Below, in pieces: positions 13,631 through 32,000 of a stretch of 32,000 nt of DNA; position 1 is the stretch's first letter; every line of letters starts with the position of its first letter. The stretch is from Alkalilimnicola ehrlichii MLHE-1 (GTDB lineage Bacteria; Pseudomonadota; Gammaproteobacteria; Nitrococcales; Halorhodospiraceae), in NCBI RefSeq assembly GCF_000014785.1, contig NC_008340.1:930001-962000 (forward strand). The letters run 5' to 3'. Position numbers and translations under genes: made by a program. The notes under the pieces were generated by a model. It was not told where the DNA came from. It worked only from the letters and a program-made list of their open reading frames with translations, and did not search any database.

Positions 13631-13639
13631 CTCTGATGC

Positions 13640-13716: not shown

Positions 13717-13732
13717 ATGGTCTGCTTGCCGG

Positions 13733-14704: not shown

Positions 14705-14734
14705 GCGGCGGTTCCGAAAGGTGAATGGCCACGC

Positions 14735-15376: not shown

Positions 15377-15427
15377 ACCCCGCCACCGTACTGCACACTG
15401 CGTCGTCAGCAACACGGAGGCCTACCT

Positions 15428-17152
15428 GTGGCTAAAGATAATGAACCGCAACCGTCTGACAACCAGCAATCAATCACCAACTCCGGCGAGATGGCCTCTG
15501 TGGGCGTGCCTGCGCCCGAGGGGCCGGCCAACCTGATCGACACCGATTATGTCATTGGCCAGGACAACATCACCGGCCAGATCCGGCTCAACCTGGACAT
15601 TCACGGCAAGGTCTTTGCCATCTCCGCGCTGGTCACCGTGTTTTTTGTGGTCCTCACCCTGGCCCTGCAGGACGAGGTGGCGCCGCTGTTCGAGGCCACC
15701 CGTGTCTGGCTCACCAGTAATCTCGCTTGGTTCTTCCTGCTCGCCGGCAACATCTTTGTGCTGGTCTGTCTCGCCCTGATCTTCTCGCCACTGGGCCGGG
15801 TCCGTATCGGGGGGGCGGAGGCGACACCCGATTTCTCCTACCTCGGCTGGTTCTCCATGCTCTTCGCCGCGGGTATGGGCATAGGGCTGATGTTCTTCGC
15901 CGTCTCCGAGCCCATCAGTCACTTCGGCACTGCCATGGGCGGCATCGCCCTGGAGGACGGGGCTCGCACCGACTGGGCGCCGCTGGGGGCCGCCGAGGGG
16001 AATACCGAGGCGGCGATCCGGCTGGGGATGGCAGCGACCATCTTCCACTGGGGCCTGCACCCGTGGGCGATCTACGCCGTGGTGGCCCTGGCACTGGCCA
16101 TCTTCGCCTACAATAAGGGGCTGCCGCTGACCGTGCGCTCCATCTTCTACCCCCTGCTCGGTGAGCGCGTCTGGGGTTGGCCGGGGCACCTCATCGACAT
16201 GTTGGCGGTCTTTGCGACCCTGTTCGGCCTGGCCACCTCCCTGGGGCTGGGCGCACAGCAGGCCTCCGCAGGGCTCAGCCACCTGTTCGGAATCCCTGAG
16301 GGCAACCTGACCATGGTGCTGCTGATCCTGGGGATCACGGCCGTGGCCATCGTCTCGATCGTGGCGGGGGTGGACAAGGGCGTTAAGCGTCTCTCCGAGA
16401 TCAACATGTTCGTCGCGGGCCTGTTGATGTTCTTCGTCATCTTCGTCGGGCCGACACTCCTGATATTTACCGGGGTGTTCCAGAACCTGATGGCCTACCT
16501 GGTCAACCTGCCGGCGCTGTCCATGCCCTTCGGGCGCGAGGACAGCAACTTCACCGAGGGCTGGACGGCCTTCTACTGGGCCTGGTGGATCAGCTGGTCA
16601 CCCTTTGTCGGCATGTTCATCGCCCGCGTGAGCCGCGGTCGCTCGGTCCGTGAGTTCCTGATCGCGGTCCTGCTGGTGCCGTCCATGGTCTCCGTGCTTT
16701 GGATGACCGCCTTTGGTGCCACCGCCATCGATCAGGTGGTCAACCAGGGCTTTGAGGGCGTGCGCGAGGCGGCACTGGAACTCCAGCTCTTCGTCATGCT
16801 CGGCGAACTGCCGTTGGCGCAGATCACCTCGTTCGTGGGCATCTTGTTGGTGGTGGTCTTCTTCATTACCTCGTCCGATTCCGGTTCGCTGGTGATCGAC
16901 ACCATCACCTCCGGTGGCAAGGTGGATGCGCCCAAGCCGCAGCGGGTGTTCTGGGCCATCATCGAGGGGCTGATCGCCATCGCCCTGCTGATCGGTGGCG
17001 GGCTGGCGGCCCTGCAGGCCATGGCCATCTCCACCGGTCTGCCCTTCACGCTGGTCCTGCTGGTGGGCTGCTATGCCATCTTCAAGGGCCTGATGTCCGA
17101 GCCCCGGGGTCTCCCGGAGCCGGAGGAGGGGCAGAAGGAGCCCAGCCGGTAA
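15428..17152 (+). CDS. BCCT-family betaine/carnitine/choline transporter
   Basis: 574 aa, about 12 TM helices. The hallmark BCCT segment is WTAFYWAWWISWSPFVGMFIARVSRGRSVREF. GTG start with GGAGG 7 nt upstream. Confidence 0.9.
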   Translation: MAKDNEPQPSDNQQSITNSGEMASVGVPAPEGPANLIDTDYVIGQDNITGQIRLNLDIHGKVFAISALVTVFFVVLTLALQDEVAPLFEATRVWLTSNLAWFFLLAGNIFVLVCLALIFSPLGRVRIGGAEATPDFSYLGWFSMLFAAGMGIGLMFFAVSEPISHFGTAMGGIALEDGARTDWAPLGAAEGNTEAAIRLGMAATIFHWGLHPWAIYAVVALALAIFAYNKGLPLTVRSIFYPLLGERVWGWPGHLIDMLAVFATLFGLATSLGLGAQQASAGLSHLFGIPEGNLTMVLLILGITAVAIVSIVAGVDKGVKRLSEINMFVAGLLMFFVIFVGPTLLIFTGVFQNLMAYLVNLPALSMPFGREDSNFTEGWTAFYWAWWISWSPFVGMFIARVSRGRSVREFLIAVLLVPSMVSVLWMTAFGATAIDQVVNQGFEGVREAALELQLFVMLGELPLAQITSFVGILLVVVFFITSSDSGSLVIDTITSGGKVDAPKPQRVFWAIIEGLIAIALLIGGGLAALQAMAISTGLPFTLVLLVGCYAIFKGLMSEPRGLPEPEEGQKEPSR

Positions 17153-17186
17153 ACGGGCTGGGGCCTGCTTGCAGGCCTGTCTGTCA

Positions 17187-17220
17187 GGGGCGGCCCGCCA
17201 CCGGCGGGTCGCCCCTTTTT
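17187..17220 (+). terminator. Rho-independent terminator after the BCCT gene
   Basis: GGGGCGGCCCGCC-ACC-GGCGGGTCGCCCC has 13 nt arms (one G-U; the innermost pairs must open to form the loop), followed by TTTTT. It lies between convergent genes. Confidence 0.75.
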
Positions 17221-17248
17221 AATGAGCGAGGGGCGGCCATAGGGCCTG

Positions 17249-17971
17249 TCAGCACCAGAGCTGGCCGAGCGACGTCTCCGGCGAGTAGAGCCGGCCGACC
17301 TGTGCCTGAAACAGCTCGGCCGTGGCCAGGGCGTCGTTCACCGCATGGTGCGAGTGGTAGGCCGGTAGGCCGTAGCGCAGGCGGCTGTCGTGCAGCCGGA
17401 TAGGCACCGGATTCTGGCCGAGGAACCGTTTCAGCCGCGACCAGCCCGACTGCCGGTGCCGTCGCGCCTCCAGCTCCATGGTGTCGATCACCGGGAACAG
17501 GAGGCCCTCGCCCACGCGGGCGCGCACGGCTGTGTCCAGAAAGGGGCGTTCAATATTGCGGTAGTGGACCACCGGCTGTCGACCGGCCAAGGCCTCCAGC
17601 AGCTCATCCAACACCTCCGAAAGATCGGGTGCGTTGGCCAGGTCCGAGTGGGTGATGCCGTGCAGGGTGATGGATTCGCTGAGCAGCGGGCGGGGTGGCT
17701 GCAGCAACCAGTGGCGGCGGTCGGGTAGCCGGATGCGCTGCAGGTCGAAGGGCACCAAGCCAATACTGACGATGGCATGGCGGTCCGGATCGAGACCGGT
17801 GGTCTCCATGTCCAGCGCCACCAGGGGGGCCTCGCCGATTGGCGTATTCGGCGTCAGGTCCCAGCCCTGAAAGTAGCGTTGCAGCCGCGGATCGCGGGCC
17901 TGTCTGGCTCGATCGGCCAAGTAGGCTGGCCACTGTGTGGCCGGGGTGGTGTTTCGTCGCCAAGAGAGCAT
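17249..17971 (-). CDS. DnaQ-like (DEDDh) 3'-5' exonuclease
   Basis: 240 aa from the ATG at 17971. ExoI is LVALDMETTGLD, ExoII HWLLQP...ITLHGIT region, and ExoIII HHAVNDALATAELF. The start at 17971 leaves 13 nt after the upstream stop. The track start at 18025 would overlap the upstream gene by 41 nt. Confidence 0.8.
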   Translation of the reverse strand: MLSWRRNTTPATQWPAYLADRARQARDPRLQRYFQGWDLTPNTPIGEAPLVALDMETTGLDPDRHAIVSIGLVPFDLQRIRLPDRRHWLLQPPRPLLSESITLHGITHSDLANAPDLSEVLDELLEALAGRQPVVHYRNIERPFLDTAVRARVGEGLLFPVIDTMELEARRHRQSGWSRLKRFLGQNPVPIRLHDSRLRYGLPAYHSHHAVNDALATAELFQAQVGRLYSPETSLGQLWC

Positions 17972-17984
17972 ACGGCGGCCTGGA

Positions 17985-19874
17985 CTAGGGCATGGGGTAG
18001 CGGAAACGCAGGAAGCGCTGGGCATTGCTCAGGACCTGGAAGGCGTCCTTGAGGTTGTGGCGCTCGGTGTCGGAGAGGTTCTCCGGCTCGATGTAATTGT
18101 CCGGCGGACGATCGTTCTGGATGTCGGCCACCTGATGCCGGATGCGCACCATGGACATGAACTCGAAGGCGTAGCGCAGCTTCTCGCCCACCCCCTTGGG
18201 CAGCAGCGTCGTCTTGCTGATGTCGTCTAACCGATCAAAGGTGTTCTGGGCGGTGGAGCCGCAGGCGAGGGCGTGCACCCGCACCAGGTCCACCATGGGG
18301 GCCGTACCCCGTCCCTTGAGATTGATGATGTTGTTCTGTTTGCCGTCCTTCTCCATCACGAAATCGCGCCAGAAGCCCAGCGGCGGCGTGCGGTTGAGGG
18401 CGTTACGGGCGAGGGCGGCGAGAAAGCGACTATGGCGCGGTGCAAGATTGGCGGCGAGGTCCTGCAGCTGCTCGACGAACACCTCCTCGCCATAGCAGCT
18501 CTCCAGATCGAAGAAGATCGAGCTGTGCAGCAGCCGCTCCGGCGTGGGCTGCAGGATCCAGTCGCGAAAGTACTCCTTCCACACTCGCAGCGGCTGGCGC
18601 CACTGGGGGTTGGTGGCCATGATGCCGCCCTTGCAATAGGTATAGCCCAGCTCCGCCAAACCGTCGGAGACCTGTTTGGCCAGCTCGGCGAAGTAGTCGT
18701 CGTGTTGCTCCGGGTCGAATCGGTCGTCCAGGATCAGCGCGTTGTCCTGGTCGGTGACGATGGTCTGCTCGTGCCGGGCCATGGAGCCCAGGACCATAAA
18801 GCAGTAGGGCACCGGCGGCGGACCCAGGGCCTCCTCGGCCAGCTCCAGCAGGCGGCGGGTGAAGCTGCGGCCGATGGTGGACTGGGCGCTGCCAATCATC
18901 TGTGAGTTGGCGCCCTCACGTTCCATGCCGACGAAGGTGTCGCGGGCGTCGCGGCGCAGGCGGATCAGGTGCTTGACGCTGCGCGCCCGGTAGATGCTGT
19001 CCACCAGGTAGAGGCTGCTGTGGGTCTCGTGGCGGAGGATGTCCGACAGGTGCAGCAGGCCGACCGGCCGGCGGCGGTGGAGCACCGGTAGGTGGTGGAT
19101 GTTATTGCGCAGCATGCTCAGGGTGGCTTCCTGCACGGTCTCATCCGACTGGATGGTGATCAGGTCACGGCTGGCCACCTCGCCCACCGGCGTCTCCGGC
19201 GGCAGCCCCTCCGCCACCACCCGGTTGCGAAAGTCGCTGTCGGTGACCAGGCCCACCAGCCGCCGTCGCTCCCCGCCACGCTCCACGGTCAACTGCTCCG
19301 GGTCATCGTCGGGCGCTCCCAGGACAAGCACCGAGGGGTTCTGGCTGTCTCGTATGAGCCGGGCCGCCTCCTGCACCGGGGTGGACTCATTCAGCATCAG
19401 CGGGCTGCGGGTAATCAGCTTGCGTACCCGGGTGGTGAGGCTGGCGTGATCGAACGTCTTCTCGACCGTGGTCTCAAGCCGCGGTTTCTCCAGTTCCACG
19501 AAATCGGCAAACTGTTCGTCCGCCTCGCACAGACGGTCGAAGGTGGTGCGCGGGATGTAATAGATCAGGGTGTCTTCGATGGCCTTGGCCGGAAAGCGTA
19601 CCCGTTGGTTTCGCAGCAGGGCGAAATGGCCGAAGATATCCCCCTCGCTCAGGCGGTCGTAGAGGGTGCCGTTACGGCGGTAGATATCCACCGCCCCGCT
19701 GCGGATGTAGTGCAGGTCGTTGATCTCCTGGTCCAGCTTGAGGATATCGGTGCCGGACTTGAAGTAGGCCACCTCCACCGTATCCGCCACCGCGTCGAGC
19801 AGCTCGTCCGACAGGGCATCGAAGGGGGGAAAGCGGGCCAGGTGCTGTCTGACTTCCAGCGATTCGATATCCAT
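17985..19874 (-). CDS. Cyclic-nucleotide-binding / CBS-pair / DUF294-type nucleotidyltransferase protein
   Basis: 629 aa. N-terminal cNMP-binding fold (YFKSGTDILKLDQEINDLHYIRSGAVDIY...GDIFGHFALL), then two CBS repeats. A GlnD-like NTase core follows (FMVLGSMARHEQTIVTDQDNALI), then a C-terminal DUF294_C-like helical region. Same strand as, and immediately upstream of, the exonuclease gene. Confidence 0.85.
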   Translation of the reverse strand: MDIESLEVRQHLARFPPFDALSDELLDAVADTVEVAYFKSGTDILKLDQEINDLHYIRSGAVDIYRRNGTLYDRLSEGDIFGHFALLRNQRVRFPAKAIEDTLIYYIPRTTFDRLCEADEQFADFVELEKPRLETTVEKTFDHASLTTRVRKLITRSPLMLNESTPVQEAARLIRDSQNPSVLVLGAPDDDPEQLTVERGGERRRLVGLVTDSDFRNRVVAEGLPPETPVGEVASRDLITIQSDETVQEATLSMLRNNIHHLPVLHRRRPVGLLHLSDILRHETHSSLYLVDSIYRARSVKHLIRLRRDARDTFVGMEREGANSQMIGSAQSTIGRSFTRRLLELAEEALGPPPVPYCFMVLGSMARHEQTIVTDQDNALILDDRFDPEQHDDYFAELAKQVSDGLAELGYTYCKGGIMATNPQWRQPLRVWKEYFRDWILQPTPERLLHSSIFFDLESCYGEEVFVEQLQDLAANLAPRHSRFLAALARNALNRTPPLGFWRDFVMEKDGKQNNIINLKGRGTAPMVDLVRVHALACGSTAQNTFDRLDDISKTTLLPKGVGEKLRYAFEFMSMVRIRHQVADIQNDRPPDNYIEPENLSDTERHNLKDAFQVLSNAQRFLRFRYPMP

Positions 19875-20084
19875 ACGCCGCCTGCCTCACCCGCGGAAAT
19901 CGGTAAGGAATCCAGTTTGCAGTGGTGCCAGGGAGACTGTAAAGCGCCGTGCGCCGGCGTGCAGCGATCCGGGCAACGCAATCAGGATGCGGATCTGCTG
20001 CCGGTGACGGAGGCGGTTGTGTCGACAGCTCAACGCTCATCCCAATGCGTCAGCAGGAAGGGGAGATGCCGGGCGGTCGATGCC

Positions 20085-20114
20085 TTGACAAGCCAAAAGG
20101 CACCCCCCTAGGCT
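20085..20114 (+). promoter_or_regulatory. Candidate sigma70 promoter of the vgrG operon
   Basis: Consensus TTGACA (20085-20090), 18-nt spacer, TAGGCT (20109-20114). It lies about 35 nt upstream of the vgrG ATG. The -10 is weak, so this is tentative. Confidence 0.3.
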
Positions 20115-20149
20115 AATCGACTACGGATTCCCATGCCAACGGACTGGCC

Positions 20150-22243
20150 ATGCCTACGGACAACGGACTGTACCTCGCCCTCTCGCGCCCCGGCGTGGCG
20201 GAGGCCGACCTGCCCCGGGTCACCGGGTTCACCCTGGATGAGCACCTCTCCCGGCCCTTCACCCTGACCCTGGACCTGGTCCACCCCTCACCCGATCTCG
20301 CCCCCGACGACTGGCTTGAGCAGGGCCTGGCCCTGGTGATCCATCAGGCCGGCCGCGTCACCCGCCGGGTCCACGGCGTGGTCACCGAGTTCCAGCGCGG
20401 CCGCACCGGCGCCCGGCGCACCGCCTACCAGCTGGTCGTCCGCCCCGCCCTCTGGCGGCTCTCCCTGCGCCGAAACTGCCGCATCTTCCAGCACGCCTGC
20501 CTGCTGGATGTCCTCCACACCCTGCTTTCGGAACATGGCATCACCGACGCCGCCTTCGCCGTCCGCCACCGCCCCGAGACCCGCGAGTACCTGGTGCAGT
20601 ACCGGGAGAGCGACCTGGCCTTTGTCCAGCGGCTTGCCGCCGAGTTGGGCATCGTCTACTTCCACGAGTTCGACGACACCCCCGAGGGCGGCCACCGCCC
20701 GGTGTTCACCGATACCCATCGGGGGTTGGGGCATGCGGGCGAATGGGTCTACCGCCCCCGCGCCGGCGGCGTAGCCGAGGCCCGCCATGTGCACACCCTG
20801 CGCGAGGCCCACCGGGTGCGCGCGCAGCGCGCCACCCTGGAGGATCGCCATTTCCGCACCCCCCGGCGGCGGCTGATCCACGCCCATGAGGCGGAGGGGG
20901 CCGAGTCGGGCGCCACCCCCTACGAGCACTACGACCACCCCGGCCGGTTTAAGAGCGAGGCCAGCGGCCGGGCCTTCACCCGGGTCCGGCTCGGCCAGTT
21001 GCGTGCCGACGCCCACACCGCCGAGGCCGAGAGCGATATCGCCGAGCTGCGCCCCGGCGTGCGCTTCACCCTGGATGGCCACGACGCCGGCGAACGGCGC
21101 CGGGACTGGCAGGTGGTCGGCGCCCGCCACACCGCCCGCCAGCCCGCCGCGCTGGAAGAGGACGCGATCCTGCTGGCCGCCGAGGGGCAGGGCGAGAACG
21201 AGGCAGGCGTGGCCCGGCTGAACAACCGGCTCACCCTCGTGCCCGCCGACACCGACTGGCGCCCGCCCCACGACCCGGACGCCGGCCCGCGCATGGAGGG
21301 CCCGCAGATCGCCCGGGTGGTGGGCCCCGAGGGGGAGGCGATCCACTGCGATGAGCACGGCCGGGTCAAGGTCCGTTTCCCCTGGGACCGCTACGCCGCC
21401 GATGACGAGCACGCCAGCGCCTGGCTGCGCGTCGCCCAGCCCTGGGCCGGGCCCGGCTACGGCGGGCTGTTCCTGCCCCGGGTGGGCCATGCGGTGATCG
21501 TCGACTTCATGGCCGGCGATCCGGATCAGCCGGTGATCACCGGCCGGGTCTACGATGGCCACAACACCCCGCCCTATCCGCTGCCCGAGCACAAGACCCG
21601 CAGCGTGCTGCGCAGCCGCAGCCAGGACGGTGAGGGCTACAACGAACTGCACTTCGAGGATGCCCGCGAGGCCGAGCGCATCCACCTGCACGCCCAGCGC
21701 GATCTCGACCTGCACACCCGCAACGACCGCTCCGAGACCATCGGCCGGCACAGCCACCTGGGCGTCCACGGCGACCGGCTCGCGGAGATCCACGGCGACG
21801 AGCACCTCACCGTGCAGGGCGAGCGGCGCGAGCGCACCGGTGGGGATCAGCATCTCAGCGTGGAGGGCACCCTGCATCTCAAAGCCGGTGAGGCCTGGCT
21901 AAGCGAATGCGGCCGGGAACTGCACGTCAAGTCGGGGCACAAGGCGGTCATCGACGCCGGCGCCGAGATCACCCTCCAGGCGGGCGGCAGTTTCATCAAG
22001 GTCGATCCCTCGGGCATCACCCTCAGCGGCCCCGGCATCCGCATGAACTCCGGTGGTCGCCCGGGCTCGGGATCGGGCCAACGCACGGCAACGCCCCTGT
22101 TGCCCGGGCGGGTCATGGCGGCGGAGGCCGATGGCTCCGCTAAGCCGGGACCTTCGGCGGTGCTCAAGCAGAGGTTCCTCCTGCACCAGGCCGCCCAGTC
22201 CGGGGCGGGCCTGTGCGAGGTATGTAGCGGCAAGGGAGAATAG
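20150..22243 (+). CDS. vgrG: Type VI secretion spike protein VgrG
   Basis: 697 aa. gp27-like N-terminal region (FTLDEHLSRPFTLTLDLV, YLVQYRESDLAFVQRLAAELGIVYF). gp5 OB-fold region (IARVVGPEGEAIHCDEHGRVKVRFPWDR...AWLRVAQPWAGPGYGGLFLPRVGHAVIVDFMAGDPDQPVITGRVY). Beta-helix repeats and GSFIKVDPSGITLSGPGIRMNSGG near the C-terminus. Confidence 0.93.
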   Translation: MPTDNGLYLALSRPGVAEADLPRVTGFTLDEHLSRPFTLTLDLVHPSPDLAPDDWLEQGLALVIHQAGRVTRRVHGVVTEFQRGRTGARRTAYQLVVRPALWRLSLRRNCRIFQHACLLDVLHTLLSEHGITDAAFAVRHRPETREYLVQYRESDLAFVQRLAAELGIVYFHEFDDTPEGGHRPVFTDTHRGLGHAGEWVYRPRAGGVAEARHVHTLREAHRVRAQRATLEDRHFRTPRRRLIHAHEAEGAESGATPYEHYDHPGRFKSEASGRAFTRVRLGQLRADAHTAEAESDIAELRPGVRFTLDGHDAGERRRDWQVVGARHTARQPAALEEDAILLAAEGQGENEAGVARLNNRLTLVPADTDWRPPHDPDAGPRMEGPQIARVVGPEGEAIHCDEHGRVKVRFPWDRYAADDEHASAWLRVAQPWAGPGYGGLFLPRVGHAVIVDFMAGDPDQPVITGRVYDGHNTPPYPLPEHKTRSVLRSRSQDGEGYNELHFEDAREAERIHLHAQRDLDLHTRNDRSETIGRHSHLGVHGDRLAEIHGDEHLTVQGERRERTGGDQHLSVEGTLHLKAGEAWLSECGRELHVKSGHKAVIDAGAEITLQAGGSFIKVDPSGITLSGPGIRMNSGGRPGSGSGQRTATPLLPGRVMAAEADGSAKPGPSAVLKQRFLLHQAAQSGAGLCEVCSGKGE

Positions 22244-22245
22244 CC

Positions 22246-22767
22246 ATGGATCACGGCGCATGGATGATGATCGATGGGGCGATCAACCCCGGGGCATTGC
22301 CCGCCATCTTCAGAGACGACGCCGGCGGCAGCGGCGCGATGGCCGTCCTGCATGGGACGGACTACGCGGCGATCGCCGACTCTGGGCCTTTGCTCGTGCG
22401 CGCAGGAGCGGGCAGCCACCTGATGGCGCAGTGGCGTGCAAACGAGCTGCCCGCACGCCACGCCTGGGTCTTTCAGAGTGACCGATCGGACGAGGAGGTT
22501 GCGGCCTTCTGGCGGCGTCGGCTGTTTTTCCTGGCGCCGGACGGGCGGCGATTCTGGTTCCGGTTCGCCGATGCCCGGGTCATGAGCAGAGCGCATGGGG
22601 ACAGGGCGCTCCCTGAAGGGTTCTGGCAGGGTCTTTCCGGCGTGCGTTTCCACCCACGACAAGCCGTCTGGTCCCCCGTGGACGAGGCGCGGGAGGGTGC
22701 GGACACCGGTGAATTCGTCATCAGCGAGGGGCAAGCGCAACGTATTGCCGGAGGGGCGGCGTCATGA
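22246..22767 (+). CDS. DUF4123-family T6SS effector adaptor/chaperone (Tap/Tec/VasW-like)
   Basis: 173 aa, starting 2 nt after the vgrG stop. DUF4123-like features are MIDGAINPGALPAIF, GPLLVRA and RFWFRFADARV (the family FR-[FY]-x-D-x-R-V motif). It is short for the family. Its stop overlaps the effector start (ATGA, 22764-22767). Confidence 0.75.
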   Translation: MDHGAWMMIDGAINPGALPAIFRDDAGGSGAMAVLHGTDYAAIADSGPLLVRAGAGSHLMAQWRANELPARHAWVFQSDRSDEEVAAFWRRRLFFLAPDGRRFWFRFADARVMSRAHGDRALPEGFWQGLSGVRFHPRQAVWSPVDEAREGADTGEFVISEGQAQRIAGGAAS

Positions 22768-25370
22768 CCATCGCCCAGTGCCCCTTGCTCGCCGCCATCG
22801 TCCCCGTCCGGTACGCCATCGGGGTCAACGGGGTGTCCAGCCCCTTCCTGGAGGACTTCGACCTGCCACCGTTGCAAGGCCGGCCGGTCACCGAGAGCCA
22901 GGGGTCTCCGGACGAGGCGGCTCCGCTGCGTTACGTCGCCCGGCCCCTTCGCAATGGCTGGTGTTACGTCTGGTTAGACAGCCAGCAACGGCTGGTCGAA
23001 TACCGGGTGCGCGGCAGCGCGCTGGAGGAGACCGATCGGGCCGGCGCCCCCATCGGGCCCACCGCCAGGGTCTGCATCTACGTACCGGCGGGCGAGACGG
23101 CCGCCATCGCCTGGTCCCCGGTGCGCTGGAGCGATGAGCAGTTCACCGCCATCGGGCGAGACGACGGCAGGCGCCGGGCCGTGATGCGCGAATTCGTGCC
23201 CGGCCAGGGGCCAGCCAGCAGCGCCGATGCCTGGTCGAACGAGATCCCTGAACTCGGCGAGTTTGACGAAAGGGACTTCCACTGGAGTATCGAGCAGCCC
23301 GCCACCCTGCCCGTATGGGAGGACATCAAGCGTGCGGTGGACGATGCCGAGCAGCACGCCACCGTGCTGGTGGACGACCCCTGGGGGGTGGTCATCGAAC
23401 TGGCCCACCTGGTGCGCCAGGGCCAGGCGCAGCGCGCCGACTGGCTCGCCAACGAAGGCGAGGAACGCATTCTGGCCGAGAACATCCTGGCCCTGGACCG
23501 TCAGGGCGAGGGCTTTCGCGGGCGACTCCCGCGGCTGGCCGACCGCGACCGCCTCGAGCAGGCCATTCACCACCATGGGCGGGAAATTAGGGCCATCGAG
23601 GAGAACCTCGATACCCTGGCCGCCGACTGGGCGCGCTGGATGGGCACCCTCTGGGGGGGCGAAGGCCCCGAGTCCATGGCCTCCGCCCAGAGCCACTTCG
23701 ACCCCTCGCTTGACGAACACCACGAGGCGATGGAAACCCTCTGGAGCGCGGCCCTGGGCGGTGTCACCCAATACGAAACCGGTGCCACCCTGGCCACCAA
23801 CCTGCTGGATCCCGATACCGGCCCCCCGGTCATGCCCGGCGGCCACTCCCTGTGGACGGCACTGTTGGGGCGGTTAGAACCGGTGCAACTGGCCGATGTC
23901 CAGCGCCTGGTCGGGGTCAGCGAGTCCCTGCAGGCCCAGGACTGGGAAACCTGGGCCCACAGCCTCAACCACCTGGCCGGACAGCTGGGCCACGGCCTGG
24001 CCACGGCCCGCGAGGGGCTGTTCCTCGTGCTCGCCACCACCATTGGGCCCATTCTCCGGGAACAGGGCGCCACCTCCGCCCACCGGACCCTGATCGCCGG
24101 CTATCTCGCCGCCGCGCTGGCGCGCAGCCGGCAGCGCCTGAAAGTGGAGTCGGTCGCCGCGCGCGCCCTGTTGGACTGGATGAACGAACCCAGCGCCCGC
24201 GCCGCCGGCGCCCCGTCGCCCCTGTACCAGATGCGCCCCGACCTGCTGCCCGAGCTCGACGCCCGGCAGGTCATCACCATCCGCGTGGTCGCGGAGGGCG
24301 CTTCTTCCGCCGAGGGCAACCCCTTCCTGCAGCGCGCCCTGCAGGAGGCCCCGCTGAAAAGCCTGCTGGTGCTGATGAATGGGTTGGTGGTGGTTCATGC
24401 GGGCAGCCAATTGGCCGCCGGTGATCGTTCCGTACAGACCGCAACAGCGGCGGCTGGGGGCGTATCCGGCACCATCAGCGCCACCGCCGCCACCATTCAG
24501 CACTTCGCGCAGATCCGCTCCGACGACATCCTTGCCCGCCAGGGCCTGTCCGCCGGCTGGCGGGGCGCCTTCGACCGCTACCTCCTCTGGGGTCAGGCCA
24601 CCAACCTGACTCTGTCGATCACTGCGGTCTTCGACGCCGTCTACTTCGGCTACGGCGCCTGGGAGAGCGTCCGCCAGGGGGATCGCCGATCGGGCACCAT
24701 CCAGGCCGGCATGGCCACGGCCGCCGCCGGCCAGACCGCCGCCGGCGCCCACGCCTTCCACACCTACCGCCAGGCCCGGCAAGCCCTGCTCGTGGGCCGG
24801 TCCACCCAGGCCGCGCGCACCGCCGCCCGGGCCCGGATCGCACCGGCCGTGATCCTCGCCCTGACGCTGGTCATCGTCGCCGGCGCGGTCAGCCTGCGCT
24901 TCACCCGCGACAACGAACTGGAACACTGGCTGCGCCGTACCCGCTTCGGCACCCACCCGGCCGACTGGGCCGGCGACCTGGACGAGGAACTCGGCCACCT
25001 CTACCGGCTGCTCTACCAGCCACGCATCCGGCTGGAGGCCCGCCAGGCCCGTAACCCCCGCTCCGGCGATGTCTACCACTACCGTGTCCTGCTGGTCACC
25101 TTCCCCGGCGCCACGCCCTTCCCGGGCATGTTCACCCTGGAGGCCACCGAGCGCTGGCGCACCGGGCTGGTCCGGCATGACGAACGCAGCCGGACCATCA
25201 CCGAAAAGGATCTCGACCTCGACATCGGCGGGGCGGAGGCGCCCGACGGCCCCGTCTACCGACTCATCTACCACAACACCCGGGAAGGCGACCGGCTGAG
25301 CTCCCTTTCCGGCACCCTGTACTATCGCCCGTTCCCCGATCTCACCCTGCCTCCCATCCGGATCAACTAG
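22764..25370 (+). CDS. VasX-like (BTH_I2691-family-like) membrane-active T6SS effector
   Basis: 868 aa. The N-terminus CPLLAAIVPVRYAIG plus GWCYVWLDSQQRLVEYRV matches my recollection of the VasX N-terminal loading domain. A cluster of hydrophobic/Gly-Ala helices at residues ~530-712 (LKSLLVLMNGLVVVHAG; LWGQATNLTLSITAVFDAVYFGYGAW; IAPAVILALTLVIVAGAVSL) suggests a pore-forming toxin. Its position after vgrG and DUF4123 mirrors V. cholerae vgrG2-vasW-vasX. Confidence 0.7.
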   Translation: MTIAQCPLLAAIVPVRYAIGVNGVSSPFLEDFDLPPLQGRPVTESQGSPDEAAPLRYVARPLRNGWCYVWLDSQQRLVEYRVRGSALEETDRAGAPIGPTARVCIYVPAGETAAIAWSPVRWSDEQFTAIGRDDGRRRAVMREFVPGQGPASSADAWSNEIPELGEFDERDFHWSIEQPATLPVWEDIKRAVDDAEQHATVLVDDPWGVVIELAHLVRQGQAQRADWLANEGEERILAENILALDRQGEGFRGRLPRLADRDRLEQAIHHHGREIRAIEENLDTLAADWARWMGTLWGGEGPESMASAQSHFDPSLDEHHEAMETLWSAALGGVTQYETGATLATNLLDPDTGPPVMPGGHSLWTALLGRLEPVQLADVQRLVGVSESLQAQDWETWAHSLNHLAGQLGHGLATAREGLFLVLATTIGPILREQGATSAHRTLIAGYLAAALARSRQRLKVESVAARALLDWMNEPSARAAGAPSPLYQMRPDLLPELDARQVITIRVVAEGASSAEGNPFLQRALQEAPLKSLLVLMNGLVVVHAGSQLAAGDRSVQTATAAAGGVSGTISATAATIQHFAQIRSDDILARQGLSAGWRGAFDRYLLWGQATNLTLSITAVFDAVYFGYGAWESVRQGDRRSGTIQAGMATAAAGQTAAGAHAFHTYRQARQALLVGRSTQAARTAARARIAPAVILALTLVIVAGAVSLRFTRDNELEHWLRRTRFGTHPADWAGDLDEELGHLYRLLYQPRIRLEARQARNPRSGDVYHYRVLLVTFPGATPFPGMFTLEATERWRTGLVRHDERSRTITEKDLDLDIGGAEAPDGPVYRLIYHNTREGDRLSSLSGTLYYRPFPDLTLPPIRIN

Positions 25371-25372
25371 CC

Positions 25373-26389
25373 ATGCAGCACCTACGCCGGTTCTTCGCCG
25401 ATCTCTCCCGCAATATCGGGCTGGCCGACGAGGTCATCACCCTGCGCCCCGACCGGCGCGCCGCCGCTCAGCCCATGCAGGCCGGCGATGTCCAGGACCA
25501 GACCGAGCACTACCTCGACCTTTCCACCGGCAGCTCAAGGGGCCTGTGGACCGGCATGTGGGGATTGATCTCGCTTTTGATGTTCTTACTGATGTTACCG
25601 ATTCTCTTTCAGGACTGGGAGGGGGTGGTCTTTGTTTTCAAGTTCATCGGTGCCATGGCCGGCGTCACCCTCTTCTTCTTCCTGCTCGAGGTTTTCTGGC
25701 CCGCGGCCCTGCCCCTGCGCTTCAATCGCCGCACCCGCGAGGTCTACTTCCAGGACGGCAAAAAGCTCTACCACACCCCCTGGGACGAGGCCGTCGCGTG
25801 GCTGCAGGAAACCCGCCAGGTCACCCACCATGCCGGCGTCAACCGGCTCACCCCGCTGCAGATCCTCCTCCAGCGCTTCCAGCAGCCCGACGAGGTCATC
25901 GCCGTCAACCTCAACCTCCCCATGGGCCACACCGCCCAAACCCAGGCCATGCTCTGGGAGTACCTGCGCTGTTACATGGAAAACGGCCCCTGGTTCGACG
26001 AGCAGGGCCGAAACACCCCCGAATCCACCCGCCAGGCGGTGCGCAAGCGCTTCGCCCAGCGCAATCGCACGGGCAAGATCGACATCGAACTCCACCGCGA
26101 GTTCGTCAACATGGGCGTCATGACCCGGGATGAAAAGTGGTTCACCAATGCCTTCCAGGCCGTCATGCTGCCCGCCCTCGTCCTGCGTGACTTTGTCTGG
26201 CAGCTCGCCCAGCGCCGGGCCGCACGCAGCCAGTGGCACCCCCTCGTGCGCGAACGCTGCCGCGCCGACGGCCCCACCTCCCGACTTTACGACATTGAGC
26301 GCGACCAGGGCCTGCACCCCGACGCCTCGCAAACCCTCCATCCCCACACCCAGCGTCGCTCTTCTCCGCACGAACCATCGAAGGCCTGA
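25373..26389 (+). CDS. Two-TM membrane protein, putative cognate immunity protein
   Basis: 338 aa, with the ATG 2 nt after the effector stop. Two adjacent TM helices (GLWTGMWGLISLLMFLLMLPILF; FIGAMAGVTLFFFLLEVFWPAAL) precede a soluble domain. The immunity role is inferred from position only. I recognise no named family. Confidence 0.55.
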   Translation: MQHLRRFFADLSRNIGLADEVITLRPDRRAAAQPMQAGDVQDQTEHYLDLSTGSSRGLWTGMWGLISLLMFLLMLPILFQDWEGVVFVFKFIGAMAGVTLFFFLLEVFWPAALPLRFNRRTREVYFQDGKKLYHTPWDEAVAWLQETRQVTHHAGVNRLTPLQILLQRFQQPDEVIAVNLNLPMGHTAQTQAMLWEYLRCYMENGPWFDEQGRNTPESTRQAVRKRFAQRNRTGKIDIELHREFVNMGVMTRDEKWFTNAFQAVMLPALVLRDFVWQLAQRRAARSQWHPLVRERCRADGPTSRLYDIERDQGLHPDASQTLHPHTQRRSSPHEPSKA

Positions 26390-28446
26390 TGTCGTTGAAC
26401 CTGGCGCCTCACATTGCCAATGCAGGCGACGCCCATATGCCTGAGTGGCCGGGCGAAGCCGGTGACGCCGAGCGTAACGACCTGGAGTCGCCCGCCGAGC
26501 TCTATTCGCAGCATCGCGAAGCCATAGAGCAGGTCACTGCCCGTTCAGGCGGCCACACGGGCTTCATTGGCGGGGCGCTGGCGCCCAACGGCATCGTCGA
26601 CGTGATCCGCCGGCAGGCGATGGAAGACTTCCTGGCCTATGCCACCCCGATGCAGGCGCAGTGGCAGAGCGAGTATCACCGTATCGGGGCCGACCTGGCC
26701 GCCATACTGCCCACCTGGCACACCCAGGCCCTGCTGCTCGACCGCGAAGAGGAGCATCACATCCTGCTGACCTGCCTGCTGGAAAAGCAGGCCGTCGAGA
26801 CCCTGCTGGCCTGCGGGCAGGAGGACTTCCTGTCGAGCTACTACGCCGGCGACGACCCGGTACCGGCACACCTGATGCATTACGTCCCCACCGCGTCCTT
26901 CGTGGAGGGATTCCTTTCCCAAAACACTGGCCTCCAGAAAGCGCTCACCCAGGCGTCCGCACTGATGGGCGCCCAGGGCGCACTCAGCCGCTACCAGCAG
27001 TGGCGGGGCGAGGTTGAACATCAGACCGGGCTGCGCTTTCGCAGCGTCGAGGGCCTCTCCGACGAAGCCCGAACCGCCATCGCGGGCGAAGTGCAAATCA
27101 AGGAGAAGCTGCTGGGGCAGGCGGTGCTCGGGACGTTGCTCGATGACGTACAGGATGTCGACCTGGGGCAGCGCATCACTACCCTGGCTTCGCGCTTGCC
27201 CGATGGGCAACGGCTGATGTTCGCGGAACGGCTGGGCCTGCTGGAGCTGGGCTGGGACATTCCCGATCAATCGGTACTGGGCCGCATCCAGCAGGCGCTG
27301 GACGACACCGATACGGCCATGACCCGGCTGACCGCGCTGGAGCGGGAGCTCGAGCAACTCCGGCGGAAACGCCAGCAGGAGATGGCGCGCGCGTCAAGGC
27401 GCGGTACCCGCCAGGCCCACCGCCGGGCGGCCGACCAATTCAACGCGCGCAAGATCCGGGAGGCCCAGGCAGACATCAACCGGCACAAGCGCCTGCTGGG
27501 CGAGGCATTCGACGCCCTGGCCGAGACCCGTGCGGCCGCCGGCAGCCCGGCGCAACTGGAGCGCTGGGCCAGGGTAGCCAATGGGGCGATGGGGGCCGTG
27601 GCCCTATTGGGTGGCCTTTCAGGTGCTCTCGAGGTTTTCAAGCAATCTCGGCGTATCGACCGCGCAGACACCGACGCCGAGCGACTGGCCTCACAGGTTG
27701 CCTTTACGGGCGCGGCCGGAGTCGCCCTGGGTGGCCTATCAATCGGCATCATGAGTATGGTCGGTCGAACCCTGGGCAAGCCGGCCGTCGCCTGGCGACT
27801 GCTGCTGCTCAAATTCGCCGGCCCCGCCGGCTGGGTGGTGGCGGTTGGCACCGCCCTGCTGATCATCGGCGAGGTGCTGGCCAATCGCTTCTCGTTGAGC
27901 CCTGTGCAGCGCTGGTGCCAGCGCAGTCACTGGGGGCGAGAAGATCAGGGCTGGGATCGCGAGGCCCACGAGCGGGAACTGGCCCGACTTGGCGATACCG
28001 ATCTCACGGTGGAACGGCAGGGGCAGGCCGAGCCCCATGGCGGCCCGGGGCCCGGGCCGGCAGGCACCGACCTCGCCATACGCATTGGCTTGCCCGGGCT
28101 TGACGCCCCCAATGCGGAAAACCTCGCGCTGGGCCTCTGGGGCGTCACCCCTCGCCTCAAGGAAATGACCCGAGACTTTCTCGAACATGCCGAGCTCGAA
28201 ACCCGGGGCTCGAGCTATGCCCTGCACTACCATTTCGATCCCGAAACATTGGCCGAATGCCACGAGTTCCGCCTCGTCATCCGCACGAAGGGCCCCGAAG
28301 CATCCACCACCCGGGTCTTCCAGTTGCATCGCCGCGGCACATCGCTCTCCGATGAGTGGAGGGAGATCTCCGCCCTCGGCGATCGTTTCCTCACGCGGTA
28401 CCAAGTGGGCAACTGGCCGGACATGCCCCTGACGCCCTGGCCGTGA
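26389..28446 (+). CDS. Paralog of the VasX-like effector lacking the N-terminal loading domain (putative second toxin)
   Basis: 685 aa. The ATG shares one base with the preceding TGA (TGATG at 26387-26391). Three hydrophobic helices lie at residues ~396-500 (GAMGAVALLGGLSGALEVF; VAFTGAAGVALGGLSIGIMSMVG; GPAGWVVAVGTALLIIGEVLA). They are followed by NRFSLSPVQRWCQRSHWGREDQGWDREAHERELARL. This aligns by eye with RFTRDNELEHWLRRTRFGTHPADWAGDLDEELGHL, which follows the last helix of the 868-aa effector. There is no PVRYA-type N-terminus. Confidence 0.55.
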   Translation: MSLNLAPHIANAGDAHMPEWPGEAGDAERNDLESPAELYSQHREAIEQVTARSGGHTGFIGGALAPNGIVDVIRRQAMEDFLAYATPMQAQWQSEYHRIGADLAAILPTWHTQALLLDREEEHHILLTCLLEKQAVETLLACGQEDFLSSYYAGDDPVPAHLMHYVPTASFVEGFLSQNTGLQKALTQASALMGAQGALSRYQQWRGEVEHQTGLRFRSVEGLSDEARTAIAGEVQIKEKLLGQAVLGTLLDDVQDVDLGQRITTLASRLPDGQRLMFAERLGLLELGWDIPDQSVLGRIQQALDDTDTAMTRLTALERELEQLRRKRQQEMARASRRGTRQAHRRAADQFNARKIREAQADINRHKRLLGEAFDALAETRAAAGSPAQLERWARVANGAMGAVALLGGLSGALEVFKQSRRIDRADTDAERLASQVAFTGAAGVALGGLSIGIMSMVGRTLGKPAVAWRLLLLKFAGPAGWVVAVGTALLIIGEVLANRFSLSPVQRWCQRSHWGREDQGWDREAHERELARLGDTDLTVERQGQAEPHGGPGPGPAGTDLAIRIGLPGLDAPNAENLALGLWGVTPRLKEMTRDFLEHAELETRGSSYALHYHFDPETLAECHEFRLVIRTKGPEASTTRVFQLHRRGTSLSDEWREISALGDRFLTRYQVGNWPDMPLTPWP

Positions 28447-28466
28447 CAACAAGGGACAGGACCTCC

Positions 28467-29801
28467 ATGCCCAGATCAACCATCGACGATACGTTACCCC
28501 CTATGCGCGCCGGCGAGCGCGAAAGCCGCGCCGGCGGCGAGCAGTACTGCCTGAGCCCTCTGCCCCTGCCCATCGACAGCGAACACGGCGTGGACGTGGC
28601 TCACATCGACGTGCGCCACGACGAGGTCACGATGGACCTGCGCCAGGGCGCCACCCCCGAGAGTCTCCTGGTTACGGGGCATATTGCCAGTGGGCTCATG
28701 ACTTTTTTGGCAGGACTGGCCCTCGTTTTCTTGCTGAGTGCCGTGTACAAGGGATCCCTTCCCTTCGAACTGGTAGTAGCAGGAGTGGGGGTTACTTACG
28801 GAATTGCGCTGTTTCCCTTCTTCATCGGCATTCTCTATCCCGATGTCATACTGAGGCGCATCCCACCCATTCGCCTGCATCGCCAACGCCGCGAGGTGGC
28901 CTTCGTGGTGGAGAGCCGGGGACAGAGCATTTGGTTACCCGACCCAACTAACATGTGGTTGGCGTCCACGGCCGGCACCATTGCCATGCTCACCGGATTT
29001 TTTGCAATATGGGATTCTGTGGAGTTTTTCCGCCCTGACGTTGAGGCGGCATTTCCTCTCATGATGCTGCTCCTGCATATCGCCTCCCTGGCCTTCCTGC
29101 CTCTCTATCCCTATTTCCATGACTTCTGCCGCAAGCTCGTCGGCCAACAACGCCAGACGGTGCTGGTCCCCTGGGAGGACGTGGTCGCCCTGGCGGTCTT
29201 CAACCCAAACCTCAGCGCCGGGGCGGTCACCGGCTTCGGCTGGAACTTCGCTCTGATGCCGCCCGATCCGGAACGACCCGGCTATACCCTGCCCGGGGCC
29301 GGCATCATCGTCGGGGTCGGCGGCCTCCCGGGCGCGCTGGCCCAGTGGGAGTACATCCGCCGCTTCATGGAGGAGGGGCCCGAGGCCATCACCTCTTCCG
29401 CCCGGGAGTGGGGCCTCGAGTGGTACGACGCCTACGTGGCCCGGGAAAAGGCCGAGTGCGAACGCACCCACGACAAGGCCCGCTGGCGGCGCTTTCGGCG
29501 CGAGCAGTGGTGGAATCATGCACGCTTCGCCCACTGGTACACCGAGTACCGCATGAAGCATGTGCTGCCCAAGGCGGTGCCCAAGGGCTGGCTGGCGGGG
29601 TGGTCCAGGCCCCTTCCCCGGGACCAGTGGGCCCGACCTTCGCGCGAACTCACTGAACTCGGCGAACAGCTACGCGCGGCCTACCAGCGCGGCGAGAAGT
29701 TCATCAAGATGGGCAATATCGAGAAACGCTTTGGGGTCGAGGTAGAGCCCTCCCCAGGTACGGCTTATCGCACACTGCCATTTGCGGCCAGCGCGGCCTG
29801 A
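28467..29801 (+). CDS. Four-TM membrane protein, paralog of the 25373-26389 product (putative second immunity protein)
   Basis: 444 aa from the ATG at 28467, 20 nt after the upstream stop. The track start at 28356 would overlap by 91 nt. Shared blocks with the 338-aa protein are IRLHRQRREVAFV vs LRFNRRTREVYF, VPWEDVVAL vs TPWDEAVAWL, and LAQWEYIRRFMEEGPEA vs AMLWEYLRCYMENGPWF. Two extra TM helices are inserted between the first two blocks. Confidence 0.55.
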   Translation: MPRSTIDDTLPPMRAGERESRAGGEQYCLSPLPLPIDSEHGVDVAHIDVRHDEVTMDLRQGATPESLLVTGHIASGLMTFLAGLALVFLLSAVYKGSLPFELVVAGVGVTYGIALFPFFIGILYPDVILRRIPPIRLHRQRREVAFVVESRGQSIWLPDPTNMWLASTAGTIAMLTGFFAIWDSVEFFRPDVEAAFPLMMLLLHIASLAFLPLYPYFHDFCRKLVGQQRQTVLVPWEDVVALAVFNPNLSAGAVTGFGWNFALMPPDPERPGYTLPGAGIIVGVGGLPGALAQWEYIRRFMEEGPEAITSSAREWGLEWYDAYVAREKAECERTHDKARWRRFRREQWWNHARFAHWYTEYRMKHVLPKAVPKGWLAGWSRPLPRDQWARPSRELTELGEQLRAAYQRGEKFIKMGNIEKRFGVEVEPSPGTAYRTLPFAASAA

Positions 29802-29804
29802 GCC

Positions 29805-30105
29805 GGCGCCATGAGCCAGACACCAACCGTTACGCTGCTCCAGGCTGCCCAGCCCAGAGCGGGCCTGTAAAAGGTATGCGGCGGCAAAGGAGTAAGGCCA
29901 TGGACCAAGGCGCCATGGCCGTCCTGCATGGCACGGCCTACTCGACATCGGTGGGGCGGAGGCGCCCGACGGCCCCGTCTACCGATTCATCTACCACGAC
30001 ACCCGGGACGGCGACCGGCTGAGCTCCCTTACCGGCACCCTGTACTATCGCCCGTTCCCCGATCTCACCCTGCCCCCCATCCGGATCAACTAGCCATGCA
30101 GCACC
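29805..30105 (+). pseudogene. Composite remnant: vgrG 3' end + DUF4123 5' end + effector 3' end + first codons of the immunity-like gene
   Basis: 29941-30105 matches 25218-25382 with about 6 mismatches in 165 nt (my by-eye alignment). That segment encodes the last 50 effector codons, the TAG, and CCATGCAGCACC. 29838-29940 matches the 22178-22372 junction (vgrG tail, stop, adaptor start) at lower identity. It has a premature TAA where the vgrG tail has Cys (GL*KVCGGKG vs GLCEVCSGKGE), a ~26-codon deletion in the adaptor, and an out-of-frame adaptor/effector fusion. Confidence 0.8.
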
Positions 30106-30791
30106 GGCGTCGGCGCGACCTGGGCATCGAACTGATGCTCGATGCCCCCGAGGGCTTCACCAGCGACTTCACGGGGCCGGCCGCCGAAATGACGGCATCG
30201 TCGCGGTACCCCTGCCGGACCCGCATGAGCGCCGAGCAGGACAGCGTCTTCCGGCGCGCGGCGGGGCATGCGCTGGTGTTTGTCCTGCCCGTGGGGCACC
30301 CCGAAGCTCCCACGTCGCCCAGCTCCGTCTGGTCAAGACCGCAGAGCGGGTGAGGGTAGTGGTCGACGGGCCGGCCATCTCTCGCGTGCTGGTGGGCTTG
30401 GCGATTTACAATTTGGCCGGTGAACTCGCAGGGTTACTTCACGTTGACCCAGACGAAGAGATTAGTTTGCAGGAGGCGAGGCTTGGTAGTGCAGGCCTCG
30501 ATCTGGTTGCGGCGTCCTGTTCCTGTCCATATCGACTCCCATCAGAGGGTGGTGGAGGATGCCGAACTGGTCCAGCACGAGGGTCGGCAGGACCGCGAGT
30601 TTTACAAGTCGGATGACTGGTGGTGGAACCACAAGCGGATCAGCTGCCTGAAGAGCCAGCTAGGGCTCTCAGTGGTATTGATAGGCTTCCCACCCAATCA
30701 ACTACCCCTGGCGCCAACTATGCTGCCAGTTGACCCCACAGATCGGCTGAATCGACATGGGCGCCTACCGGGAACAGCAGGCCCGGCAGAA

Positions 30792-30820
30792 TTGACGCCC
30801 CCCGGCGGGGCAGGTAGAAT
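30792..30820 (+). promoter_or_regulatory. Candidate sigma70 promoter of rplU-rpmA
   Basis: TTGACG (30792-30797), exactly 17 nt spacer, TAGAAT (30815-30820). This is near-consensus and lies about 125 nt upstream of the rplU ATG. Confidence 0.55.
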
Positions 30821-30946
30821 CCGCGCTCTTGAATCCGCTGCAGGTCGCGGCCCGGGTGTCCAGCCGGGAGAAGGCGGCCGGTCACCCGGTATCAGCGGAG
30901 TGGCAAGCGAACACCAGCCAACAGATTCACTAACGGAGAACGGGTC

Positions 30947-31261
30947 ATGTACGCCGTTATCAAGACCGGAGGCAAGCAGTACAAGGTCTCCGAGGGAGAC
31001 GTCCTGCGCGTCGAGAAGCTCGCCGGTGAGGCGGGCGCTTCCGTGGAGTTCGACCAGGTTCTGATGGTCGGCGAGGGCGACGACGTCAAGGTCGGCGCGC
31101 CCACCGTGGAGGGCGGCAAGGTGACCGCCGAGGTGCTGGGTCAGGGCCGTGCCCGCAAGATCGAGATCCAGAAGTTCAAGCGCCGCAAGCAGTATCGCCG
31201 CTTCGCCGGTCATCGGCAGCAGTTCACCGAGGTCAAGATCACCGGCATCTCCGCCGGCTGA
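30947..31261 (+). CDS. rplU: 50S ribosomal protein L21
   Basis: 104 aa, [25 protein letters not shown]...[13 protein letters not shown]. This is canonical L21. GGAG SD upstream. Confidence 0.95.
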
Positions 31262-31280
31262 TTCGGGAGGTTCAGCACTC

Positions 31281-31541
31281 ATGGCACACAAGAAGGCAGG
31301 CGGCAGCACTCGTAACGGCCGCGATTCAGAGAGTAAGCGTCTTGGCGTGAAGCGCTTTGGCGGTCAGAACGTGCTGGCCGGCAACATCCTGGTGCGCCAG
31401 CGTGGCACGCACTTCCACGCCGGTGAGAACGTCGGTCTGGGCAAGGACCACACCCTGTTCGCGAAGGCGGACGGTCAGGTGGTCTTCGAGCGCAAGGGCC
31501 CGCGCAACCGCCGCTACGTCAGCGTGCGCACCGTGCAGTAA
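31281..31541 (+). CDS. rpmA: 50S ribosomal protein L27
   Basis: The ATG at 31281 gives 86 aa, [52 protein letters not shown]... This is canonical L27. GGGAGG SD. The track ORF start at 31149 is an out-of-context upstream extension overlapping rplU. Confidence 0.95.
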
Positions 31542-31582
31542 ACACCACGCCCGGGCCATCCCGGCCTGCGTGAGTTTCCGGA

Positions 31583-31615
31583 AAGCCTCGTGTGTGCGCA
31601 CGGGGCTTTTCTTGT
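31583..31615 (+). terminator. Hairpin plus T-tract between rpmA and obg (terminator/attenuator)
   Basis: AAGCCTCGTG-TGTGCG-CACGGGGCTT forms a 10-bp stem (one G-U) with a 6-nt loop, followed by TTCTTGT. Confidence 0.55.
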
Positions 31616-31630
31616 ATGCGGAAGGGCTAA

Positions 31631-32000
<370 letters not shown>

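Follow-up and report, generated by a model that had tools for sequence, protein, structure and literature searches.

A decayed type VI secretion cassette as a probable third layer of a displaced array in Alkalilimnicola ehrlichii

The scar at 29835–30105 of the window (the whole stretch of 32,000 nucleotides of Alkalilimnicola ehrlichii MLHE-1 that was analysed) is very probably the remnant of a once-complete type VI secretion system (T6SS) cassette of type A. It represents an allele other than the intact one, and it would be the third of four layers left by serial displacement. The layers follow one another from vgrG onwards: module A is intact, cassette B has a crippled effector and an intact immunity gene, the scar (called A′ here) is reduced to five snippets, and cassette C is reduced to six snippets that end at the rplU promoter. 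Decay grows with distance from vgrG. The original prediction had described the scar as dead DNA left by a once-complete module with vgrG, adaptor, effector and immunity gene, related to the intact one, and the homologies, a stop codon and the reading frames agree with this. We infer the former completeness from the five snippets because no intact A′ allele was found in the related genomes compared. The coordinates of all features are collected in Table 1.

Table 1. Features of the T6SS auxiliary island and its downstream border (window coordinates).
Feature	Position	Strand	Basis
T6SS auxiliary island, about 10.8 kb, DUF294 gene to rplU promoter	19963..30781	+	L008 comparison
vgrG, intact; last 21 codons are the source type of scar piece 1	20150..22243	+	Pfam Phage_GPD 8e-81, Gp5_trimer_C, Phage_base_V
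DUF4123 adaptor, intact, 173 aa	22246..22767	+	Pfam DUF4123 1.6e-17
effA, VasX_N/MIX-type effector, intact, 868 aa	22764..25370	+	Pfam VasX_N 4.7e-15
immA, DUF6708 membrane protein, immunity gene, 338 aa	25373..26389	+	Pfam DUF6708 1.9e-11
p685 (685 aa), relic of effB, a 1146-aa VasX_N effector	26389..28446	+	blastp vs L014 effector
immB (p481, 444 aa, true start 28467), intact immunity gene of effB	28467..29801	+	L014 homology, weak DUF6708 match
Scar piece 1, vgrG′ tail (last 21 codons)	29835..29899	+	BLASTN, local alignment
Scar piece 2, adaptor′ codons 1–6, ends in merged repeat GGCGCCATGG (29909–29918)	29900..29918	+	alignment
Scar piece 3, adaptor′ codons about 32–40	29915..29940	+	BLASTN, alignment
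Scar piece 4, effA′ last 50 codons and TAG	29941..30093	+	BLASTN, alignment
Scar piece 5, immA′ start ATGCAGCAC(C), then effC relic junction	30096..30105	+	alignment
85-aa 'hypothetical protein' ACN2MM_04855, chimeric pseudo-ORF	30096..30353	+	word-based search, famC-locus comparison
effC relic, residues 234–258 and 292–310 of a 1137-aa VasX_N effector, two frames	30108..30223	+	tblastn
effC relic, residues 668–766, frameshift near 30300	30222..30517	+	tblastn vs L026 effC, E 4e-22
immC (famC) relic, residues 44–98	30528..30692	+	phmmer 2e-15; local HMM 7e-26
immC relic, residues 324 to end, another frame, in-frame TGA	30697..30795	+	famC comparison
rplU promoter-like site TTGACG-17-TAGAAT, core DNA common to L008	30792..30820	+	promoter scan, L008 alignment

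When 29601–30500 was compared with the rest of the window by BLASTN, and in addition by local alignments, three significant matches were identified, and nothing beyond them rose above noise. The first (29835–29918 to 22181–22263; 79.8% over 84 nt with one gap, E = 8e-15) covers the last 21 codons and the stop of vgrG together with adaptor codons 1–6. The second (29909–29944 to 22333–22368; 88.9% over 36 nt, E = 9e-8) corresponds to adaptor codons about 30–41; these two stretches of the intact adaptor are the source type of scar pieces 2 and 3. The third (29941–30113 to 25218–25390; 94.8% over 173 nt, ungapped, E = 4e-75) comprises effector codons 819–868, TAG, CC and ATGCAGCAC, and the last 50 codons of effA are the source type of piece 4. 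The order in the scar is the native one: vgrG tail, adaptor start, second adaptor piece, effector end and immunity start. That diverged copies of four non-adjacent module pieces lie here in native order is therefore confirmed almost to the base. The BLASTN comparison with module A, proposed earlier as a check, gave both identities and breakpoints at clear significance (E down to 4e-75). The effector tail had been credited with about 6 mismatches in 165 nt, and this count is exact up to 30105. The final 8 nt of the third match carry 3 mismatches and are already part of the next fragment.

The adaptor has lost 78 nt (26 codons) between GGCGCATGG (22255–22263) and GGCGCGATGG (22333–22342) of the intact copy. 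A single merged copy of the repeat, GGCGCCATGG, is left in the scar at 29909–29918, as expected from the claim that GGCGCnATGG-like repeats bound the deletion. The scar was indeed reduced by several deletions, with this one falling between direct repeats of 9–10 nt. The junction of the 2.85-kb deletion after piece 3 shows microhomology of at most 2 nt. At the left join, 29806–29834 has no recognisable source. A premature TAA is present at 29868–29870 within the vgrG′ tail, and the adaptor′ start (ATG at 29900) is in a different frame from the effector′ tail (frame of 29941), so the pieces are mutually out of frame and interrupted by a stop, as had been noted. The homology at the end of the vgrG′ tail is real, but the earlier reading of this end as 'GV*' is not, since the natural stop is mutated and the tail reads ...KGVRP in frame.

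No intact ORF was found in the scar. A promoter and terminator scan of 29500–31300 gave no signal beyond chance in the scar, and an Rfam scan of the same interval gave no family there. The scar itself has no detectable present function. Its only consequence is that the effector tail of the intact module and that of the scar form direct repeats of 165 nt, 96% identical and 4.7 kb apart. If these recombined, immA would be deleted, an outcome against which selection should act.

Layer A is the live module. Homologues of effA in Halomonas carry the name 'toxin VasX', and family annotation suggests that effA encodes a putative pore-forming effector, neutralised by the membrane protein encoded downstream. 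By Pfam, a VasX_N/MIX effector with a DUF4123 gene upstream and vgrG before that is found in A, and also in cassette B as it occurs in L014, a 27-kb Logan contig. Comparison with the junctions in L004 (a metagenomic contig) and L014 showed that a deletion has left the last 12 codons of immA (26354–26389) and the start codon ATG of p685 built from DNA that came from effB. A scan of genome contigs with effA alone found no relative, and a metagenome scan found no contig beyond the one already found. Look-ups of exact protein matches for effA and for the MLHE-1 paralogue P0033 were negative.

The order of genes in L014 is vgrG, a 305-aa DUF4123 adaptor, the 1146-aa VasX_N effector (effB) and a homologue of p481. 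With this effector as the reference for blastp, p685 corresponds to effB residues 272–697 and 815–1146 (68% and 83% identity). About 118 residues are missing internally, and the N-terminal VasX_N/MIX domain is gone; a Pfam search with p685 was without a match. In the Tke5–Tap3 structure, this domain is the adaptor-binding interface (PMC13133200). p481 is 79% identical to the gene directly 3′ of effB in L014, and immB would now be an orphan immunity gene, as judged from homology and gene order. A paralogue of p481 with 84% identity is located elsewhere in MLHE-1 (ACN2MM_00665).

L004, the closest relative of module A, is 92.8% identical to window 21589–26353. Its immA is followed by a second copy of the immA 5′ end, 194 nt long, then by the final 70 nt of adaptor B and by effB with its N-terminus intact. 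It appears that L004 displays the state preceding that of the window, from which the window would differ by one further deletion. At 4784–5199, the immA 5′ duplicate of L004 is fused about 27 nt later to the end of adaptor B, so that this contig has a junction scar of its own.

The GC3 signal by frame indicated decayed coding sequence 3′ of 30113. The 690 bp after the scar consist of fragments of effC and immC (family famC) and reach the −35 box of rplU. The scar had been taken for the last feature of the island, but relic DNA is recognisable up to 30795. Similarity to module A does stop abruptly at 30105, as was stated; this is not a simple end but the A′/C junction, beyond which lie pieces of a third effector and of the immunity gene that goes with it. 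The first effC relic (30108–30223) is 76% and 68% identical to effC of locus L026 by tblastn, and its matches extend to about 40 loci. An exhaustive phmmer search with 30420–30779 as the query gave a best E of 2e-15 for famC, and 30697–30783 matches residues 317–345 of one 349-aa famC member. A weak p481-like 'WWNH' match at 30576–30680 was set aside, since famC matches far more strongly. The annotated 85-aa protein ACN2MM_04855 had looked like an orphan gene, with only a self-match in a word-based search. The famC-locus comparison shows that it is a chimera of three immA′ codons (ATG-CAG-CAC) and effC fragments.

When genomes were scanned with an alignment of famC, 64 loci turned up, in Halomonas, Billgrantia, Marinobacter and Oceanimonas, and in most of them the end of vgrG lies about 3.5 kb upstream of famC. 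In L026, vgrG is followed directly by the 1137-aa VasX_N effector effC, with no adaptor gene, and this directly by famC. Such a setting makes famC a candidate new T6SS immunity family of membrane proteins without a Pfam match. Tests for kinship between famC and DUF6708 gave no support. One database protein (P0113) is a VgrG N-terminus fused to a famC N-terminus, a recombination scar elsewhere.

The scar is a different allele from the intact module. In the 173-nt tail, the scar, the intact copy and L004 are roughly equidistant from each other (9, 10 and 7 differences). The scar has D/D in common with L004 and with the alleles L005 and L006, and the intact copy alone has N/E; two of the 6 differences between piece 4 and the intact copy are amino acid changes private to the scar. 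Over the end of vgrG and the first codons of the adaptor, the intact copy and L004 are 100% identical, and the scar is only 80–89% identical. Because the intact copy equals L004 in these segments and the scar is 11–20% off, the allele of the scar split before the intact copy and L004 diverged. The statement that the scar is not a simple recent tandem copy is upheld by these tail residues and by the vgrG/adaptor comparison.

The unequal divergence across the segments of the scar, which had been used as an argument for its history, is real (Fisher p = 8e-4), but it does not carry that argument because the gradient is family-wide. Between the intact copy and L005/L006, which are 83%-identical alleles, identity in the three segments is 63%, 58–64% and 89–92%. 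In the effector tail, pS is 0.17–0.30 compared to 0.29 gene-wide, and pN is 0.04 compared to 0.14 gene-wide. The gradient is ordinary protein-level constraint on the tail, and no mosaic origin is needed. The 5′ parts, which have to change in step with the adaptor and the tail of VgrG, evolve fast.

In the history that we favour, new cassettes would have been acquired serially beside vgrG, with the conserved vgrG core supplying the homology at one end of each incoming piece and an illegitimate join closing the other. The cassette that stood there before would be shifted downstream, where it would lose expression and selection and then be whittled by deletions. The scar starts in the vgrG tail, which is where an illegitimate join would be expected if an incoming B fragment had been anchored in the vgrG core. 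A′ would have undergone at least four deletions: a left truncation within the vgrG tail, the 78 nt between the GGCGCnATGG repeats, 2.85 kb between adaptor codon about 41 and effector codon 819, and a last one that starts at immunity codon 4 and runs into effC. If every insertion is taken to have been vgrG-proximal, we infer the order of arrival as C, then A′, then B, then A. The live module A most likely arrived later than B. The original prediction had an older module displaced by an incoming related one. The displacement of an older module is retained, but the immediate upstream neighbour of the scar is cassette B and not the intact related module.

What a displacement model leads one to expect was compared with the array. 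The relic is downstream of, and in the same orientation as, the intact module. The 3′ end of the old effector is kept (29941–30093), as it is in p685 of cassette B and in the loci L079 and L080. The relic is a distinct allele or type, and the array mixes A, B and C. The cognate immunity gene is kept intact for B and is down to two fragments for C; only ATGCAGCAC(C) is left of the A′ immunity gene, unlike in classical orphan arrays.

Parallel states were observed in other genomes. In L014, two diverged A-type effector fragments lie directly after immB in native order (E = 1e-7 and 2e-4). Halomonas koreensis DSM 23530 (L015, 2444–17033) has two tandem vgrG modules. The first is C-type, with vgrG, effC and famC, and the second has a 5′-truncated vgrG (residues 494–694), a DUF4123 gene, an effA-like gene and two to three immA-like genes. 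By its gene order, this locus looks like an intact analogue of the C-then-A order of relics in the window. In L079, effB and immB come first, and behind them stand another effB, of which only the final 201 codons are left, and another immB; L080 has the last 18 effB codons ahead of immB. Three tandem DUF6708 genes are present in Halomonas sp. 328 (L011).

We tentatively raise a broader proposal, which we consider rather unlikely as it stands. The vgrG-tail/adaptor-start snippet may be the footprint of a vgrG-anchored illegitimate join, such loci may be a datable stratigraphy, and famC may be a new immunity family for adaptor-less VasX-type effectors. The truncated vgrG of H. koreensis, the VgrG–famC fusion ORF and the immA/adaptor-B join of L004 are parallels to such a footprint. 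If true, the loci would record, as a 'stratigraphy' of several steps, how such weapons turn over in gammaproteobacteria of soda lakes and in halophilic ones.

The borders of the island were defined by the sister genome L008 (GCA_049200435.1, 3.19 Mb). Here the genes are in the order ispB-Usp-BCCT-exonuclease-DUF294-rplU-rpmA-obg, and the island is absent, with 8 nt in place of the 10.8 kb. L008 3129–9494 aligns with window 13586–19962, and L008 9503–10720 with window 30782–32000. No integrase was found in Pfam scans of the long ORFs of the island, and no tRNA or target-site duplication was found at its borders. How and when the island reached this site is not marked by either an integrase or a target-site duplication. 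The stop of the immC relic (30793–30795) overlaps the rplU −35 hexamer, and its last four codons with the stop (30782–30795) lie in DNA that is 99% identical in L008, which lacks the island. This mildly favours the view that the empty site of L008 may be a secondary loss and not the state of never having had the island. Since the whole island is absent from the sister genome, we do not assert that the older layers were resident at this chromosomal site; they may predate the arrival of the island.

The identity between the window and L008 is uneven over the core flanks, with values of 97.7%, 93.7% and 99.1%. Such variation across 13586–19962, 7775–10496 and 30782–32000 suggests recombination tracts around the island site. 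L008 2711–3135 aligns with window 10438–13509 (minus strand), where a PAS-GGDEF-EAL gene is mostly lost in L008. Five short remnants are in native order (window 10658–10855, 12061–12204, 12605–12640, 12965–13024 and 13478–13505), and their alignments overlap by 7–12 nt at every junction, which is microhomology at each breakpoint. The result is a mosaic produced by multiple deletions, in the manner of the T6SS scar.

Other explanations of the scar were weighed against displacement. An assembly artefact, in the form of a chimeric or collapsed repeat, had been named with the original prediction as what could undo it. Short-read Logan contigs do end inside the repeat, and in three independent assemblies they all begin at window 30045. 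This position is k−1 = 30 nt before the mismatch at 30075, which terminates a 43-nt exact repeat run, and it is precisely where a k=31 graph must break if the reads contain both copies. The copies are also 5–20% divergent, window 25467–32000 is matched at 100% identity by another complete NCBI genome (CP183314.1, 3.26 Mb), and the MLHE-1 annotation places the 85-aa ORF after p481. We see practically no chance of an artefact. In-situ tandem duplication of the intact module A, followed by divergence and deletional decay, would involve no foreign or older allele. Scar and intact copy are of the same module type, their tails are 96% identical over 165 nt, and relatives do carry tandem immunity duplicates. 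We nevertheless regard duplication as improbable: a different cassette (the B relic, 3.4 kb) separates the copies, the scar keeps ancestral states common to L004, L005 and L006 where the intact copy is derived, and the intact copy matches L004 in the vgrG tail and adaptor start with the scar 11–20% away.

A more serious alternative, which we hold to be possible although doubtful, is that B, A′ and C, or the whole array, were layered in a donor and arrived as a block, so that A′ was never resident here. The sister genome lacks the 10.8-kb island and has flanks of 94–99% identity. L014, which comes from a different organism and is attached to a main T6SS cluster, also has A-type fragments directly after immB, and the transfer of complex arrays as stable blocks has been proposed by Kirchberger et al. 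(PMC5361080). Yet L014 and the window keep different A′ pieces and junctions, so much of the erosion must be lineage-specific, and the end of the immC relic in DNA common to the island-less genome hints at a loss there. The junction of effector tail, TAGCC and ATGCAGCAC might instead be a dedicated recombination site and the scar a retained 'landing pad'. This junction is 89–96% identical among alleles that are 83% identical otherwise, and junction-type sequences recur at module borders in L004, L079 and L080. In the last 50 codons, however, pS is at the gene average and only pN is low, which indicates conservation at the protein level, and on the analysis of pS and pN we rejected the idea of a recombination site whose DNA sequence itself is conserved. 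The island has no integrase, and recombination between the 165-nt repeats would delete immA and be self-toxic, so a landing pad is very improbable. Nor does the array resemble an integron, with no integrase among the long ORFs of the island and a junction that is conserved as protein. Serial displacement of an A-type cassette is the reading that we retain.

With this reading, the scar is a legible record of T6SS cassette turnover, with four generations in 10.8 kb and breakpoints placed to a few bases. The annotation is corrected as well, in that both p685 and the 85-aa ORF turn out to be relics and p481, as far as homology can tell, an orphan immunity gene. A full-text literature search for Alkalilimnicola and 'type VI secretion' returned no paper with either term in its title or abstract.

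Several known systems are similar. Orphan Rhs-CT/CdiA-CT and immunity modules are said to have been reported downstream of rhs and cdi loci by Poole et al. in 2011, and orphan Rhs/CDI toxin-immunity modules reportedly by Koskiniemi et al. in 2014. Displaced 3′ toxin fragments with immunity genes and short homology to the main gene are common to those systems and to the island. In contrast to Rhs/CDI, the units here are whole vgrG-adaptor-effector-immunity units and not C-terminal toxin tips, and Pfam identified no Rhs/YD or CdiA pretoxin (VENN) domain in effA or p685, only VasX_N or nothing. Among known effectors, a similar system is that of the VasX/Tke5 (BTH_I2691 family) pore-forming effectors with DUF4123 adaptors (PMC13133200). 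As in that family, effA, effB and effC have VasX_N/MIX, effA and effB follow DUF4123, and the immunity genes encode membrane proteins. The difference is that effC is without an adaptor gene, and the likeness is one of domains and gene order. In agrobacterial vgrG loci (Wu/Chang-lab, mBio 2021, PMC8546570), recombination takes place within vgrG, between the core and the variable C-terminal part. There, as here, downstream cassettes are exchanged as units, and orphan immunity genes and immunity clusters are found. The events in that study were inferred from synteny networks, whereas here leftovers of vgrG tail, adaptor and effector can still be read.

The auxiliary clusters of Vibrio cholerae provide the closest comparison, and the original prediction had already likened the setting to Vibrio T6SS auxiliary clusters and orphan arrays; the layered A, B, A′, C array agrees with this. 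In the model of Kirchberger et al. (2017, PMC5361080), homology-facilitated illegitimate recombination brings new modules in beside vgrG, and the old ones are shifted 3′. Older modules downstream, retained 3′ ends of old effectors, heterogeneous arrays and foreign alleles are features of the V. cholerae clusters (PMC5361080) that are found here also. The island differs in its lineage, with Halomonas-type VasX modules in Alkalilimnicola, in the immunity gene of A′, which was lost rather than kept, and in that all three cassette types are VasX_N pore-former types. The scar also keeps the vgrG tail and the adaptor start, which would mark an illegitimate join inside vgrG. Displacement thus affects the complete unit that starts with the vgrG tail. 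The array is a well-preserved case of a known evolutionary process in another lineage, with no new mechanism or class of element, and it supports the displacement model outside Vibrio.
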